From Escherichia coli (GTDB lineage Bacteria; Pseudomonadota; Gammaproteobacteria; Enterobacterales; Enterobacteriaceae), in NCBI RefSeq assembly GCF_003334815.1, contig NZ_QOWO01000034.1: a stretch of DNA of 40,339 bases, one strand, 5' to 3'. A program made the position numbers and the translations under genes. The notes beneath the pieces were generated by a model, which was given only the letters and a program-made list of their open reading frames with translations, did no database searches and had not been told where the DNA came from. Positions 5,830 through 12,255 of the stretch are shown one piece after another. The stretch's first letter is position 1. Each line of letters opens with the position of its first letter.

Positions 5830-7368
5830 ATGACCAATAATCCCCCTTCAGCACAGATTAAGCCCGGCGAGTATGGTTTCCCCCTCAAGTTAAAAGCCCG
5901 CTATGACAACTTTATTGGCGGCGAATGGGTAGCCCCTGCCGACGGCGAGTATTACCAGAATCTGACGCCGGTGACCGGGCAGCTGCTGTGCGAAGTGGCG
6001 TCTTCGGGCAAACGAGACATCGATCTGGCGCTGGATGCTGCGCACAAAGTGAAAGATAAATGGGCGCACACCTCGGTGCAGGATCGTGCGGCGATTCTGT
6101 TTAAGATTGCCGATCGAATGGAACAAAACCTCGAGCTGTTAGCGACAGCTGAAACCTGGGATAACGGCAAACCCATTCGCGAAACCAGTGCTGCGGATGT
6201 ACCGCTGGCGATTGACCATTTCCGCTATTTCGCCTCGTGTATTCGGGCGCAGGAAGGTGGGATCAGTGAAGTTGATAGCGAAACCGTGGCCTATCATTTC
6301 CATGAACCGTTAGGCGTGGTGGGGCAGATTATCCCGTGGAACTTCCCGCTGCTGATGGCGAGCTGGAAAATGGCTCCCGCGCTGGCGGCGGGCAACTGTG
6401 TGGTGCTGAAACCCGCACGTCTTACCCCGCTTTCTGTACTGCTGCTAATGGAAATTGTCGGTGATTTACTGCCGCCGGGCGTGGTGAACGTGGTCAATGG
6501 CGCAGGTGGGGTAATTGGCGAATATCTGGCGACCTCGAAACGCATCGCCAAAGTGGCGTTTACCGGCTCAACGGAAGTGGGCCAACAAATTATGCAATAC
6601 GCAACGCAAAACATTATTCCGGTGACGCTGGAGTTGGGCGGTAAGTCGCCAAATATCTTCTTTGCTGATGTGATGGATGAAGAAGATGCCTTTTTCGATA
6701 AAGCGCTGGAAGGCTTTGCACTGTTTGCCTTTAACCAGGGCGAAGTTTGCACCTGTCCGAGTCGTGCTTTAGTGCAGGAATCTATCTACGAACGCTTTAT
6801 GGAACGCGCCATCCGCCGTGTCGAAAGCATTCGTAGCGGTAACCCGCTCGACAGCGTGACGCAAATGGGCGCGCAGGTTTCTCACGGGCAACTGGAAACC
6901 ATCCTCAACTACATTGATATCGGTAAAAAAGAGGGCGCTGACGTGCTCACAGGCGGGCGGCGCAAGCTGCTGGAAGGTGAACTGAAAGACGGCTACTACC
7001 TCGAACCGACGATTCTGTTTGGTCAGAACAATATGCGGGTGTTCCAGGAGGAGATTTTTGGCCCGGTGCTGGCGGTGACCACCTTCAAAACGATGGAAGA
7101 AGCGCTGGAGCTGGCGAACGATACGCAATATGGCCTGGGCGCGGGCGTCTGGAGCCGCAACGGTAATCTGGCCTATAAGATGGGGCGCGGCATACAGGCT
7201 GGGCGCGTGTGGACCAACTGTTATCACGCTTACCCGGCACATGCGGCGTTTGGTGGCTACAAACAATCAGGTATCGGTCGCGAAACCCACAAGATGATGC
7301 TGGAGCATTACCAGCAAACCAAGTGCCTGCTGGTGAGCTACTCGGATAAACCGTTGGGGCTGTTCTGA
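5830..7368 (+). CDS. aldB: Aldehyde dehydrogenase B (NADP-dependent), 512 aa
   Basis: ALDH-family catalytic motifs ([19 protein letters not shown]). True start [15 protein letters not shown] at 5830, preceded by RBS AAGGAG at 5817-5822. The ORF-track start at 5692 is an in-frame upstream extension. Confidence 0.9.
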
Positions 7369-7399
7369 TATAAGAAGCTGGTCGCATTGGGTATTCATT

Positions 7400-7481
7400 G
7401 CCTGATGCGACGCTTACGCGTCTTATCATGCCTACGGGAACCTGACCGTAGGCCGGATAAGGCGTACACGCCGCATCCGGC
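7400..7481. repeat. BIME: two inverted REP elements (7400-7435 and 7448-7481)
   Basis: GCCTGATGCGACGCTTACGCGTCTTATCATGCCTAC and GTAGGCCGGATAAGGCGTACACGCCGCATCCGGC match the enterobacterial REP consensus (GCCKGATGCGRCG...CTTATCMGGCCTAC). Confidence 0.85.
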
Positions 7482-7912
7482 ATAAACAAAGCGCACGTTG
7501 TTACAATTTACGTTTTAAACCTACGTGCGCAATAACCCAGACTACGCCAACAGAAGTACGTTTCTGGGGCGTGTTTTGTCAGGAGTTTAATCTCGCGTTT
7601 CGATGGTGAGCGGGCGAACCAGGCCGTAAATCACCATTGGTGATCCGAGGCCAATCAGCAATAAACGGTAGATAATTGAAGGTTTAATACGCTTAATCTG
7701 TACTGTGGATGTTTTACTGGAGTTATTCATTAGTTTGGCCAATAGTTCCACTATTTCAATATGATAAACCTCGTCCTGTTGAAAAACCAGACAGCACATT
7801 TAAGAAAGTATATAAAAAACAATATGTCGTTATATAAATAAGGAAATTGCACTGCATCATGGCATTTCATAATATGCGTTAATTGTTCTTTTTTATATTC
7901 TTTGAGGGAAAT

Positions 7913-8236
7913 ATGTTCCTGGACTATTTTGCACTGGGAGTGCTTATTTTTGTATTTCTGGTGATCTTCTATGGGATCATTATTTTACATGATATTCCCT
8001 ACCTGATTGCCAAAAAACGTAATCATCCTCATGCCGACGCCATTCATGTTGCTGGTTGGGTGAGTCTTTTTACGTTACATGTTATCTGGCCGTTTTTGTG
8101 GATTTGGGCCACGCTTTACCGCCCGGAGCGGGGATGGGGAATGCAAAGCCATGATTCATCCGTTATGCAACTGCAACAGCGCATTGCCGGGCTGGAGAAA
8201 CAGCTCGCCGACATCAAATCCTCTTCTGCCGAGTAA
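7913..8236 (+). CDS. yiaW: DUF3302 small inner-membrane protein YiaW (107 aa)
   Basis: [30 protein letters not shown]... has two predicted TM helices. RBS GAGGGA at 7904-7909. The ORF-track start at 7883 is a TTG-initiated extension. Confidence 0.85.
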
Positions 8237-8241
8237 TACTT

Positions 8242-9378
8242 ATGGATTTACTGATTATTTTGACCTATGTGGCTTTTGCATGGGCAATGTTTAAGATCTT
8301 CAAAATTCCCGTAAATAAATGGACCATTCCCACAGCGGCCCTGGGTGGAATATTTATTGTCAGCGGTCTAATTCTGTTAATGAACTATAACCATCCGTAT
8401 ACCTTTAAAGCGCAAAAAGCGGTTATTTCTATTCCTGTTGTCCCACAGGTGACTGGTGTGGTGATTGAAGTGACGGATAAGAAAAATACGCTGATTAAAA
8501 AAGGTGAGGTGCTATTTCGACTGGACCCGACGCGTTATCAGGCGCGGGTGGATCGGCTGATGGCGGATATCGTTACCGCAGAACATAAACAGCGGGCGTT
8601 GGGCGCAGAGTTAGATGAGATGGCGGCGAATACTCAGCAGGCAAAGGCCACGCGGGATAAATTCGCTAAAGAGTATCAGCGTTACGCACGTGGCAGCCAG
8701 GCGAAAGTAAACCCGTTTTCAGAACGCGATATCGATGTGGCGCGGCAAAATTATCTGGCGCAGGAAGCCTCCGTGAAGTCATCGGCGGCGGAACAAAAAC
8801 AGATCCAGAGCCAGCTGGATAGCCTGGTGTTGGGTGAACATTCTCAAATCGCCAGCCTGAAAGCACAGCTCGCGGAAGCAAAATATAACCTTGAGCAGAC
8901 GATAGTGCGTGCGCCGAGCGATGGTTATGTGACCCAGGTACTGATTCGTCCGGGTACCTATGCCGCGTCGCTGCCGCTACGTCCGGTGATGGTGTTTATA
9001 CCCGATCAGAAACGACAAATCGTGGCGCAGTTCCGTCAGAACTCCTTGCTGCGACTGGCTCCTGGCGACGATGCGGAAGTGGTGTTTAATGCTCTGCCAG
9101 GTAAGGTATTCAGCGGTAAGCTGGCAGCCATTAGTCCAGCCGTTCCCGGCGGAGCTTATCAGTCGACCGGCACCTTACAGACGTTAAACACAGCGCCGGG
9201 TTCAGATGGCGTTATCGCGACCATTGAACTGGATGAGCACACTGATTTGAGCGCTTTACCAGACGGTATTTACGCCCAGGTGGCGGTTTACTCTGATCAT
9301 TTCAGCCATGTCTCGGTGATGCGCAAAGTGCTATTACGCATGACCAGCTGGGTGCATTACCTTTATCTCGATCATTAA
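8242..9378 (+). CDS. yiaV: HlyD/AaeA-family membrane-fusion (periplasmic adaptor) protein YiaV, 378 aa
   Basis: N-terminal TM segment, long coiled-coil region ([16 protein letters not shown]... QIQSQLDSL) and a beta-barrel C-terminal domain typical of HlyD/EmrA adaptors. 5 nt downstream of yiaW. Confidence 0.85.
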
Positions 9379-10349
9379 TCTTCGCTTTCCGCCGCTTGTT
9401 CAGGCCGCAGTTGCTGCGACTGAGCAAGCTGGTGGCGAATTTCACGCAGCATTTCATCCAGCACATACTGGACCCGCCAGGGCTGGTATTCCCGTTTACG
9501 GAAGATAGCCACCAGATCCAGCCACCATTCATAGGGTTGCTGAAAGCAGGGCACCAGCGTGCCGTCTTGCAGGTCGCTCTGCACACTTTTGTCTGGCGCA
9601 AACACAATCCCCAGGTGATTTCGTGCCAGCTCCAGCGCAGATTGCGTGTTGTCGCAAACGTAATTTCCCTTCACGCGATAATCCCGCACCTCTTTACTCC
9701 CGGCGACGTTGAAGCGCCAGATATTCGCGTCGTCGATCATCATCGAGTCGATCAAAATACAGGAGTGATGTTCGAGTTCGTCAGGACGGCTAATGGGATG
9801 TTTCTCAAGATAGCGCTGGCTGGCATAAGCGGTTACGGCATATTGGGTAATAAAACTGGCAACCAGCGATTCATCTTTTGGTGGAGCGTAGCTGATTAAA
9901 ACATCACAATCATCAGGAAATTCGACGCCTTCATAAAAGGCATTACGCTCAAGATTGCAGGTTTTTAGCGATAAGGTGATATCACCGATATCTTTAATTT
10001 TATCGATTACATGTTTGGATAAATAGGTAATTATGCCGGTTGGGGCGTAGATGGTGACCCGACCACGTTTCTCATGCTTATAATCTGCAATAAAATTATT
10101 AAGTTGCTCGTTTCTGTCCAGCATGTCGTTGATGTACGGTAACAGCGCGGTGCCAAAAGGTGTGAGCATCAGCTGCCGGGTGGTTCGGTCAAAGACTTTT
10201 AAACCCACTTTTGATTCAAAATCAGCAAGATATTTGCTGACGTTGGCCTGTGCGATGCCAAGTACAGTCGCGGCATGGCTGATATTTTCACTGGCAGCGA
10301 TTACCGAGATAATTTTTAACTCCCGGTACTTAAGTTGTAATTTTGTCAT
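9375..10349 (-). CDS. yiaU: LysR-family transcriptional regulator YiaU, 324 aa
   Basis: N-terminal HTH ([41 protein letters not shown]) and LysR substrate-binding domain. Its stop overlaps the yiaV stop (TTAA at 9375-9378). Confidence 0.9.
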
Positions 10350-10360
10350 CGCAACAGCCC

Positions 10361-10374
10361 AATTATATATAATT
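10361..10374. promoter_or_regulatory. Perfect 14-bp palindrome AATTATATATAATT in the yiaU/yiaT divergent region; candidate LysR-type operator.
   Basis: Read directly. It sits 12-25 nt upstream of the yiaU start codon inside an approximately 120-bp, >80% AT spacer. Confidence 0.35.
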
Positions 10375-10472
10375 TTATATATTACTATATAAATATGAAT
10401 CTTGCACCGGAGAAATTGTAAGCATTATTATGCCGACTCTTTTTTATCTTATTTTAAAATGGAATACCGGAC

Positions 10473-11213
10473 ATGTTAATTAATCGCAATATTGTGGCGT
10501 TATTTGCGTTGCCTTTTATGGCAAGCGCAACTGCTTCTGAATTATCCATTGGTGCTGGTGCGGCTTATAATGAATCGCCTAATCGCGGTTATAATGAAAA
10601 TACGAAGGCAATTCCGCTGATTAGTTATGAAGGTGATACTTTTTATGTTCGTCAGACCACGTTAGGTTTTATTCTGTCGCAAAGTGAAAAAAATGAACTT
10701 AGCCTGACCGCATCCTGGATGCCGCTGGAATTTGACCCTACCGATAATGACGATTATGCCATGCAACAGCTTGATAAGCGTGATAGTACGGCTATGGCGG
10801 GGGTTGCCTGGTATCACCACGAGCGTTGGGGAACCGTGAAAGCCTCTGCAGCTGCGGACGTTCTGGATAACAGCAACGGCTGGGTGGGGGAGCTATCGGT
10901 ATTCCACAAAATGCAGATAGGTCGTCTGTCGCTGACACCTGCGCTGGGCGTTCTCTATTATGACGAGAATTTCAGTGACTATTACTATGGCATTTCAGAG
11001 AGTGAGTCCCGTCGTAGCGGTCTGGCAAGTTATTCCGCGCAGGATGCCTGGGTGCCCTATGTCAGCCTGACGGCAAAATACCCGATAGGAGAGCACGTCG
11101 TATTGATGGCGAGCGCAGGATACAGCGAGCTGCCGGAAGAGATTACCGACAGCCCGATGATTGATCGTAATGAGAGTTTTACCTTTGTCACCGGGGTGAG
11201 CTGGCGTTTTTAA
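10473..11213 (+). CDS. yiaT: MipA/OmpV-family outer-membrane protein YiaT, 246 aa
   Basis: Signal peptide MLINRNIVALFALPFMASATA, alternating beta-strand pattern and C-terminal aromatic residue (…GVSWRF). Confidence 0.85.
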   Translation: MLINRNIVALFALPFMASATASELSIGAGAAYNESPNRGYNENTKAIPLISYEGDTFYVRQTTLGFILSQSEKNELSLTASWMPLEFDPTDNDDYAMQQLDKRDSTAMAGVAWYHHERWGTVKASAAADVLDNSNGWVGELSVFHKMQIGRLSLTPALGVLYYDENFSDYYYGISESESRRSGLASYSAQDAWVPYVSLTAKYPIGEHVVLMASAGYSELPEEITDSPMIDRNESFTFVTGVSWRF

Positions 11214-11559
11214 TTCACCGGTGGATGTCGGTGCGGCTGGTGCTCCGTCGTAATGCCACAAAGGTTGTTGCTCTGGATTGCTCTGTTCATACCGGGAACC
11301 TGGCGTCTGAATCAGGATCTTATGGCTGAACAATCCCTTGCCTTCAAATGTCGTAAATGGCGCATCGGCGGGCAGCAACAGGTTATGCAGTGACTCGACG
11401 TTGTCGGCCTGCTCCATGCAATACGGTTTAATGACGTTGGCTATTTCCGGCAGATTTTTCAGAAACATACTGGTTTAACGCCAGCAGCGTGGAAGCGGCG
11501 TTACAGCAAGGAACATATCAATTCGTAGTGCCGGGGCGATGAAGCCCCGGCGTGAGGGA

Positions 11560-12255
11560 TTACTGCCCGTAATAGGCATTGGCCCCATGCTTACGCAGGT
11601 AGTGCTTATCCAGCAGTTCGTTTTGCATCGCAGGGAGCTGCGGCGCAAGCTGGCGCGAGAATAGACCCATATAGGCGCATTCTTCGAGTACTACGGCGTT
11701 ATGCACGGCATCGGCGGCGTTTTTACCCCATGCGAACGGGCCGTGAGAATGCACCAGCACCGCCGGGATTTGTGCCGGACTCCTGCCACGTTCTTCGAAG
11801 GTTTCAATGATCACTTCGCCGGTCTGATATTCATATTCGCCGTTAATCTCCTCTGCGGTCATCTGTCGCGTGCAGGGGATGGCACCGTAAAAATAATCGG
11901 CGTGGGTGGTGCCCCAGGCGGGGAGATCCAGCCCGGCCTGTGACCAGATGGTGGCGTGGCGCGAGTGGGTATGCACAATACCGCCAATTTCGGCATAGCG
12001 ACGGTAGAGCGCCAGATGCGTTGGTGTATCGGAAGAGGGTTTTTTGCTGCCTTCCACCACCTTACCGCTGGCTATCTCAACCACCACCATATCGTCGGCG
12101 GTCATCACGTCGTACTCGACGCCGGAAGGTTTGATTACCATCCATTGCCGCGTTTCGTCTACCGCGCTGACATTGCCCCAGGTGAACGTCACCAGATGGT
12201 GAGCGGGAAGCGCCAGATTCGCCGCCAGCACGTCGGCTTTCAGTTGCTCTAACAT
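11560..12255 (-). CDS. sgbE: L-ribulose-5-phosphate 4-epimerase SgbE, 231 aa
   Basis: Class II aldolase/epimerase fold (AraD/UlaF paralog): [33 protein letters not shown]... It overlaps sgbU by 7 nt. Confidence 0.9.

Follow-up and report, generated by a model that had tools for sequence, protein, structure and literature searches.

The yiaW-yiaV genes of Escherichia coli as a DUF3302-adaptor pair without a linked pump gene

To our knowledge, the well-studied tripartite efflux and type I secretion machines of Gram-negative bacteria are all built around an energised inner-membrane transporter. In MdtNOP (YjcRQP), the genes downstream of mdtN are the FUSC-like mdtO and, for the outer-membrane factor, mdtP. 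In AaeXAB and YdhIJK, the gene of a small protein with two transmembrane helices lies directly upstream of the gene of an adaptor without a membrane-proximal domain, and yiaW and yiaV of Escherichia coli share this arrangement. Here we analyse yiaW-yiaV together with the neighbouring yiaU and yiaT (yiaWVUT) in a 40,339-nt stretch of E. coli DNA (contig NZ_QOWO01000034.1), called the window below. The original prediction, made from the letters of the window, had described the four genes as a self-contained but incomplete envelope system, in which an AaeX/AaeA-like pair had lost its permease. Its gene identities and layout agree with RefSeq and Pfam to the base, and RefSeq annotates yiaW, yiaV, yiaU, and yiaT at the same positions. 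As it had also noted, neither the open reading frames (ORFs) of the window nor the RefSeq annotation contains an AaeB-type permease or another pump gene at the yiaWVUT locus. The comparisons below argue that yiaW-yiaV represents a widespread module of two genes in complete form and is not the remnant of an AaeXAB-type pump.

The main evidence comes from gene neighbourhoods. We collected 80 genome loci by a scan with a DUF3302 (YiaW family) alignment, 80 metagenome loci by a scan with an alignment of distant members, and further loci by single look-ups of distant representatives, and called and clustered the ORFs of all 166 loci anew. These contained 148 DUF3302 ORFs, 133 of them with a called downstream ORF. 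A YiaV-type adaptor lay directly downstream (<60 nt, same strand) in 125 of the 133, and the exceptions were mostly ORF-calling artefacts. The spacing was usually 1-5 nt in the Enterobacterales set, and when the look-up started from the adaptor, a DUF3302 gene was directly upstream in 3/3 distant homologues. The pair spans Enterobacterales, Aeromonas, Vibrio, Alphaproteobacteria, and uncultured soil and marine bacteria. No AaeB/FUSC gene was found in the 166 loci or with any of the 125 pairs; phmmer with AaeB gave no match among all ORFs of these loci, and AaeB remained a singleton in both clusterings. As a control, a FUSC pump gene adjoined the small protein and the adaptor in 8/8 loci of DUF1656, the family of AaeX. 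The neighbourhood comparison had been set beforehand as the test of a lost permease, and since no cognate pump gene accompanies the pair elsewhere (0/125 against 8/8), the description of the module as incomplete has to be given up.

The other neighbours also gave no transporter. Pfam assigned 138 families to 150 distinct neighbour clusters without enrichment, and FUSC, RND, and MacB-type families were absent among those matched by at least two of the clusters. MFS_1 was matched by three of the 150, and the one that was inspected (L047) sits two genes downstream of the pair and not adjacent to it. Individual pump candidates among the neighbours proved to encode unrelated enzymes; in Aeromonas, a 618-aa gene located 7 nt past the adaptor gene was considered as a possible pump but rejected as a helicase. 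Across the 125 pairs, the dedicated linked inner-membrane transporter (RND, MFS, ABC, or FUSC) that is the criterion of a tripartite system is missing. The only recurrent partner of the pair is a TolC-family (OEP) gene, which adjoins it in 8 loci, on the upstream side in L086-88 and L133 and on the downstream side in L093, L108, L112, and L113. These loci belong to an uncultured marine/sediment clade whose adaptors have ~317 aa and a short hairpin. The E. coli yiaWV locus has no outer-membrane factor gene.

Several other genes were seen beside the pair. A Na+/H+ exchanger-family gene adjoins it in two unrelated loci (L085 9451-10635 and L108 4251-5453), once directly after the OEP gene, and a PPK2 polyphosphate kinase gene adjoins it in two soil contigs (L177 7144-7971 and L180 7197-8009); with two occurrences each, both are too few to interpret as partners. 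A YiaU-like LysR gene and the pair are separated by a DUF3313 lipoprotein gene in Serratia, and on an Aeromonadaceae contig the gene of a small outer-membrane beta-barrel protein precedes the pair (L078 7289-7960, L082 7150-7959, and L084 7322-7918 for these two observations). The outer-envelope proteins beside the pair differ by lineage.

YiaW matches PF11742 (DUF3302) with 146.7 bits against a cut-off of 32, over profile positions 1-76 of 77. Its hydrophobic segments, residues 7-25 and 46-64, agree with the two transmembrane helices predicted earlier. The second helix is Trp-rich, and the C-terminal tail is variable with a heptad-like L/R pattern. The loop between the helices (residues 26-45, window ~7988-8047) contains conserved H26, D27, H38, P39, H40, D42, and H45, giving a near-invariant His/Asp-rich pattern, HD...HPHxD...H. 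Connectors of 20 residues are not usually so rich in these residues, suggesting a site for a metal or protons. Across both helices and the loop, P39, A43, S51, W59, P60, and W65 are invariant. The core is >50% identical across the family, which is small, with 881 cluster representatives at E<=1e-3 among 1.84 billion proteins. Sequence searches of the PDB gave no relatives of DUF3302, only weak, composition-driven matches. One of the DUF3302 genes is Enterobacteriaceae-like and lies on a 433-nt contig with 0.7x coverage in a Myxococcus assembly (L052), where it is probably contamination.

A relationship between YiaW and AaeX was searched for at several levels. The Pfam scan of YiaW at E<=0.1 reported DUF3302 and a sub-threshold DUF3810 only, not DUF1656, and no NCBIfam model matched. 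BLASTP found no match to AaeX and a 12-residue chance match to YdhI (E 0.38). An hhalign comparison of 40 DUF3302 sequences with 8 DUF1656 sequences (AaeX, YdhI, and six plasmid-borne homologues) gave a probability of 0.1% with E 0.5. By these comparisons, YiaW is unrelated to AaeX (PF07869, DUF1656), and the likeness is one of gene arrangement, not of family.

YiaV is placed by its sequence and its model in the HlyD/membrane-fusion (periplasmic adaptor) superfamily, in the EmrA/MdtN/AaeA class. Three Pfam families score above their cut-offs, PF00529 CusB_dom_1 (56.3 against 26.5), PF16576 HlyD_D23 (44.5 against 30), and PF13437 HlyD_3 (27.4 against 22.2). An N-terminal two-helix membrane hairpin (2-19 and 29-50) is followed by a conserved NYNHP motif and the lipoyl domain, then a long alpha-hairpin (97-153 and 161-218), a beta-barrel, and a conserved C-terminal amphipathic helix (355-377) with the motif RKxLLRMxSW. 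As in EmrA, there is no membrane-proximal domain. The closest solved relative by sequence is EmrA (E 7.5e-12), and YiaV 53-298 aligns with EmrA 51-293 in one stretch of near-equal length; the hairpin is thus of the EmrA length, so its tips could reach TolC. BLASTP also detects AaeA (E 1e-13) and YdhJ (E 5e-18), at 21-25% identity. The NCBIfam scores remain below the cut-offs, with AaeA (NF007850) at 63.4 against 400, EmrA/EmrK (TIGR00998) at 112.0 against 390.8, and the top-scoring model, MdtN (NF007785), at 112.2 bits against 376 (E 2e-32). By model score, YiaV is nearer to MdtN/EmrA than to AaeA.

The AlphaFold2 model of YiaV, made from 75 sequences, has a predicted local distance difference test (pLDDT) of 76 and a predicted TM-score (pTM) of 0.56; an earlier model from 44 close homologues had a pLDDT of 63.6, which rose to 76 when distant homologues were added. 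The best Foldseek match is EmrA in EmrAB-TolC 8ZAR (E 4e-21, TM-score 0.65), and MacA, AcrA, and MexA are further matches. In the adaptor family, the two membrane-end segments are most conserved and the hairpin is variable; the adaptor has 378 aa in 67 loci of the Enterobacterales set. The predicted AaeX/AaeA likeness therefore holds for the gene arrangement, the homology of YiaV with AaeA and YdhJ, and the C-terminal tail motif. It fails for YiaW, which the profile search places in DUF3302 only, and YiaV is of the same class as AaeA and EmrA while scoring below their curated cut-offs.

Long adaptor ORFs in L115, L118, and L132 that resembled natural YiaW-YiaV fusions were rejected, since they come from reading through the DUF3302 gene out of frame in high-GC DNA. 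The metagenome adaptor ORF in L132 (571-2031) ends in a thioredoxin/DsbA-like sequence that replaces the end of the barrel and the C-terminal helix; it is an assembly chimera or else a genuine fusion. In the literature, yiaV is counted among orphan transporters (PMC10971958) and among convergent transcripts that overlap (PMC12288877), and it is named by a genome-wide association study of Vibrio vulnificus (PMC10485832); our search found no functional study of the yiaW-yiaV pair.

YiaU scores above cut-off for PF00126 HTH_1 (48.8 bits) and PF03466 LysR_substrate (57 bits) and reaches no NCBIfam equivalog. YiaT matches PF06629 MipA with 174.7 bits against 24.2 (E 4e-51, profile positions 1-221 of 221) and does not reach the NCBIfam Vibrio OmpV equivalog (90 bits, cut-off 400). 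As predicted, yiaU is a LysR-family gene convergent with yiaV with overlapping stops, and yiaT lies divergently beyond it; the two form a published regulator-target pair, in which YiaU represses yiaT and affects lipopolysaccharide (LPS) genes (PMC9068703). Deletion of yiaU raises yiaT (log2 +2.8) and lowers the waa genes (PMC9068703). YiaU is also named CsuR (Shimada 2022, via PMC9308461) and described as a regulator of cell-surface properties, and YiaT has served as a surface-display anchor (PMC9985530, PMC10741084). YiaU-type LysR genes, scoring 175-180 bits against ~45 for generic LysR, adjoin the pair in three other arrangements, in Serratia, Pluralibacter, and two metagenome contigs.

The upstream regions of yiaW and yiaT have one element in common, TATATAAATA-N6-TTGCAC. 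Its two copies match at 19/24 positions, a score reached by 1/200 block shuffles, and they are its only two matches in the 40-kb window. The copy upstream of yiaW is kept with 0-4 mismatches in Escherichia and in most Citrobacter loci of yiaWVUT order, and the copy upstream of yiaT with 0-2 mismatches in every examined Escherichia/Citrobacter locus with yiaT called, while the spacer around the element varies among loci. The element is absent upstream of K-12 yibI, the paralogue of yiaW. In copy 1, the 3' hexamer TTGCAC (7847-7852) is followed by 17 nt and then TAATAT (7870-7875), which would fit a sigma-70-like promoter, and 7831-7852 is a candidate YiaU/CsuR site. Genomic SELEX (systematic evolution of ligands by exponential enrichment) lists, for a 'yiaWV' operon, an RpoD promoter in the spacer between aldB and yiaW, which H-NS also binds (PMC3946193). 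The shared element suggests co-regulation of yiaW and yiaT, which is a new lead. Because the promoter element is shared with yiaT, yiaWV is probably co-regulated by YiaU/CsuR and, probably too, silenced by H-NS in laboratory culture. None of the papers that we could read, which do not include the CsuR study of Shimada 2022, links YiaU to yiaWV.

E. coli carries a second such pair, yibI-yibH (yibIH). The amino acid identities are 75% for yiaW-yibI and 77% for yiaV-yibH. Among 5426 complete E. coli genomes, yibIH is core (5407, 99.6%), and the cassette is accessory at ~70%, with yiaWV in 3801 and yiaUT in 3784. Within E. coli, yiaWVUT is gained or lost as one block; in UTI89 the block is absent, aldB lies 46 nt from the sgbE/araD gene, and the yibIH pair alone remains. 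The yibIH pair adjoins mtlA and yibF-selAB. In Enterobacter and Lelliottia, yiaU directly follows aldB with no pair between, and in most genera the DUF3302-adaptor pair occurs without yiaU or yiaT, among unrelated neighbours. The pair and yiaU-yiaT are therefore separable modules, and yiaWV looks like a duplicate of yibIH that came to lie next to yiaU in the lineage of Escherichia and Citrobacter. The notion of a self-contained four-gene system survives in part: the gain and loss as a block and the element shared by yiaW and yiaT speak for it, whereas the pair without yiaU or yiaT in most genera and the aldB-yiaU order without the pair in Enterobacter and Lelliottia do not.

In Citrobacter and Pseudocitrobacter (L008, L009, L012, L013, and L063), yibH lies ~8 kb from yiaWVUT, the two flanking yibF-selAB-yiaY-aldB, and this distance in Citrobacter fits a local duplication. 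K-12 has ~15 kb from yibH to yiaW, and the extra DNA between yibH and yibF is the rhsA/yibA/yibJ/yibG region (PMC11551758). UTI89 (L182 31782-36746) carries a Fic-family gene between yiaY and aldB that is not in K-12. Insertion sequence (IS) elements are frequent in the cassette, with IS5 in HB101, IS903B and IS1A in GD33, and IS1A in several other strains; in one E. coli strain, a deletion bounded by IS1 runs from yiaY into yiaT. Reported data on the paralogue include induction of yibI in urine, with lower urine fitness and bladder-cell adhesion upon its deletion in UTI89 (PMC5404293), the use of yibH as a neutral integration site (PMC5852967), and the increase of both yiaW and yibH at stationary-phase entry in O157:H7 (PMC2241611).

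We favour, with somewhat less than even confidence, the explanation that yiaWV encodes an assembly that is complete in itself, sits in the inner membrane and periplasm, and docks TolC. YiaV would oligomerise like EmrA into a periplasmic tube with its hairpin tips reaching TolC. The membrane end of the tube would be formed by the helical hairpin of YiaV together with YiaW, which would occupy the place of an MFS, FUSC, or ABC pump. The assembly could be a TolC-linked conduit for a substrate, or a means of handling one, and the conserved His/Asp loop of YiaW is a candidate functional site. The copy in Escherichia and Citrobacter would have arisen beside an older yiaU-yiaT pair by duplication of the core yibIH. 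A wider proposal, which we regard as possible but doubtful, is that DUF3302 is a novel type of minimal inner-membrane subunit which, with a dedicated EmrA-like adaptor and TolC or another outer-membrane factor, makes a conduit across the whole envelope without a canonical transporter. Its His/Asp loop may then be a gating, ion-coupling, or substrate (possibly metal) site.

Several points weigh against this explanation of a pump-free, TolC-docked assembly. We infer the binding of YiaW to YiaV and of YiaV to TolC, as well as transport, from sequences and a model, and the binding of YiaU to the shared element from sequence. A two-transmembrane protein of 107 aa has no obvious means to energise transport, and the topology of YiaW is ambiguous by the positive-inside rule. 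YiaV was modelled as a monomer, with low confidence in the beta-barrel and residues 302-320. The surveyed loci are not phylogenetically independent, many being from Enterobacteriaceae, and the neighbourhood analysis covers linked genes, so a partner may be encoded elsewhere. From the literature, an IS1 insertion in yiaW arose in a macrophage-adaptation experiment and had no phenotype there alone (PMC5495878), and the table of genes changed by yiaU deletion does not include yiaW or yiaV (PMC9068703).

A partner encoded elsewhere is the basis of the best surviving alternative, which we consider unlikely. YiaV and YibH would be adaptors for a remote inner-membrane transporter, and YiaW would be an accessory, the role presumed for AaeX. 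E. coli has FUSC/ArAE-family proteins without an adjacent adaptor (YccS, YhfK, and YeeA), in addition to the transporters AaeB, YdhK, MdtO, and EmrB. The relatives of YiaV (AaeA and YdhJ), its best models (MdtN and EmrA), and its EmrA fold all point to pump-partnered proteins, the tail motif of AaeA is present in YiaV, and the order of a small transmembrane gene and an adaptor mimics aaeX-aaeA and ydhI-ydhJ. However, no transporter gene is linked to the 125 pairs from very different bacteria, whereas all eight DUF1656 systems keep FUSC adjacent, and the lineages that do link an outer-membrane factor gene still have no pump. Also against a remote pump are the additional membrane helix of the adaptor, the conservation that is strongest at its membrane-end segments, and a conservation of YiaW far above what is expected of a dispensable accessory.

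The lack of a pump gene would suit a role other than transport, which seems to us rather improbable. The pair would then be a structural or stress assembly that bridges or organises the periplasmic space, such as a tether, a sensor, or a partner of peptidoglycan or of outer-membrane factors such as YiaT, and not a conduit. Envelope proteins do accompany it, YiaT in Escherichia and Citrobacter, the DUF3313 lipoprotein in Serratia, and the small beta-barrel protein in Aeromonadaceae, but these neighbours vary by lineage. The control of cell-surface properties and LPS genes by YiaU/CsuR and the adhesion defect of the yibI deletion mentioned above are in line with such a role, as is the higher Ca2+-mediated transformation efficiency reported for a yiaW deletion (cited in PMC12844161). 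Yet the EmrA-like fold with a hairpin of EmrA length predicts a TolC-type tube, and TolC-family genes adjoin the pair in 8 loci.

Selection bears on whether the genes work at all. The ratio of nonsynonymous to synonymous substitution rates (dN/dS) between E. coli and Citrobacter is ~0.02-0.09 for the four genes, approximate values since dS is saturated, and all four are therefore under purifying selection and functional. That yiaWV is silent and without function, left over from an efflux operon that was duplicated or broken, and in the course of being lost is thus highly improbable: its absence from ~30% of E. coli genomes, the IS elements in several strains (PMC5495878), and the AT-rich, H-NS-bound region (PMC3946193) would agree with decay, but the idea is largely refuted by the dN/dS of ~0.02-0.07 for yiaW and yiaV, the intact reading frames with an adaptor of exactly 378 aa in 67 loci, the conserved promoter element, and the maintenance of the same pair in distant bacteria.

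The features of the locus are collected in Table 1. Bases 7500-11700 of the window are 100% identical to E. coli K-12 MG1655 and its relatives. As predicted, 5 nt separate the yiaW stop from the yiaV ATG; yiaV and yiaU overlap by 4 nt at their convergent ends, so that the stop codons overlap (CAT-TAA read against TTA-ATC), and the divergent spacer between yiaU and yiaT has 123 nt. None of YiaW, YiaV, YiaU, and YiaT matched the PADLOC anti-phage defence models, an Rfam scan of 7000-12000 gave no structured RNA family, and a generic terminator and promoter scan barely exceeded the shuffled expectation.

Table 1. Genes and copies of the conserved element at the yiaWVUT locus (positions in the window)
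Feature	Position	Strand	Description
yiaW	7913-8236	+	107 aa, DUF3302 inner-membrane protein
yiaV	8242-9378	+	378 aa, EmrA-type periplasmic adaptor
yiaU (published names LpsR, CsuR)	9375-10349	-	324 aa, LysR-family regulator
yiaT	10473-11213	+	246 aa, MipA/OmpV-family outer-membrane beta-barrel, N-terminal signal peptide
Conserved element copy 1, TATATAAATAAGGAAATTGCAC	7831..7852	+	~60 nt upstream of yiaW ATG
Conserved element copy 2, TATATAAATATGAATCTTGCAC	10386..10407	+	yiaU-yiaT divergent spacer, ~65 nt upstream of yiaT ATG

The aldB-yiaW spacer (7369-7912, 544 nt), where H-NS binding is listed (PMC3946193), starts with REP-like (repetitive extragenic palindromic) palindromes (GCCGGATAAGGCG... 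/ ...CGCATCCGGC) and continues with 37% G+C. RefSeq annotates a 47-aa hypothetical ORF on its minus strand (~7587-7730). At the other edge of the cassette, between yiaT and sgbE (~11235-11528), RefSeq has two pseudogene fragments, one of a hypothetical protein and one of the C-terminal end of an AraC-family regulator, which look like scars of an older gene arrangement.

The pair matters because an adaptor family keeps a two-transmembrane DUF3302 partner across much of Proteobacteria; a TolC-like gene of its own is sometimes present as well, a pump gene never. Either this family relies on an unlinked pump, which would set it apart from every other adaptor family, or a TolC-linked assembly can work without a classical pump. 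For annotation, the label 'HlyD family secretion protein / component of efflux pump' is not evidence of an incomplete pump. E. coli has two copies, one of them core, which makes the question testable in a model organism, and the answer bears on four 'y-ome' genes.

Among known systems, EmrAB-TolC (8ZAR and 8ZAL) is closest to YiaV by sequence and fold, with the common domain order of membrane anchor, lipoyl domain, long hairpin, and beta-barrel and no membrane-proximal domain. In contrast to EmrAB-TolC, yiaWV lacks an EmrB-like MFS gene, an additional N-terminal helix and the conserved C-terminal helix are found in YiaV, and the DUF3302 neighbour is obligate. AaeXAB resembles the locus further in the LysR regulator near aae, as yiaU is near yiaWV, and in a weaker version of the YiaV tail motif in AaeA. 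AaeXAB and YdhIJK differ in having a DUF1656 instead of a DUF3302 small protein and an adjacent FUSC pump gene, which yiaWV lacks; AaeA and YdhJ have one N-terminal membrane helix, whereas YiaV has two and a much longer alpha-hairpin. The MdtN model scores YiaV highest, yet its 112 bits are far under 376, and yiaV is not followed by pump and outer-membrane factor genes as in MdtNOP. The paralogous yibI-yibH has the same gene order, the same adaptor length of 378 aa, and no pump gene; it is core and lacks TATATAAATA-N6-TTGCAC, whereas yiaWV is accessory and stands beside yiaU-yiaT. As for the described YiaU-yiaT pair and MipA/OmpV proteins, the window holds these very genes, and the element that yiaT shares with yiaWV is a new lead.

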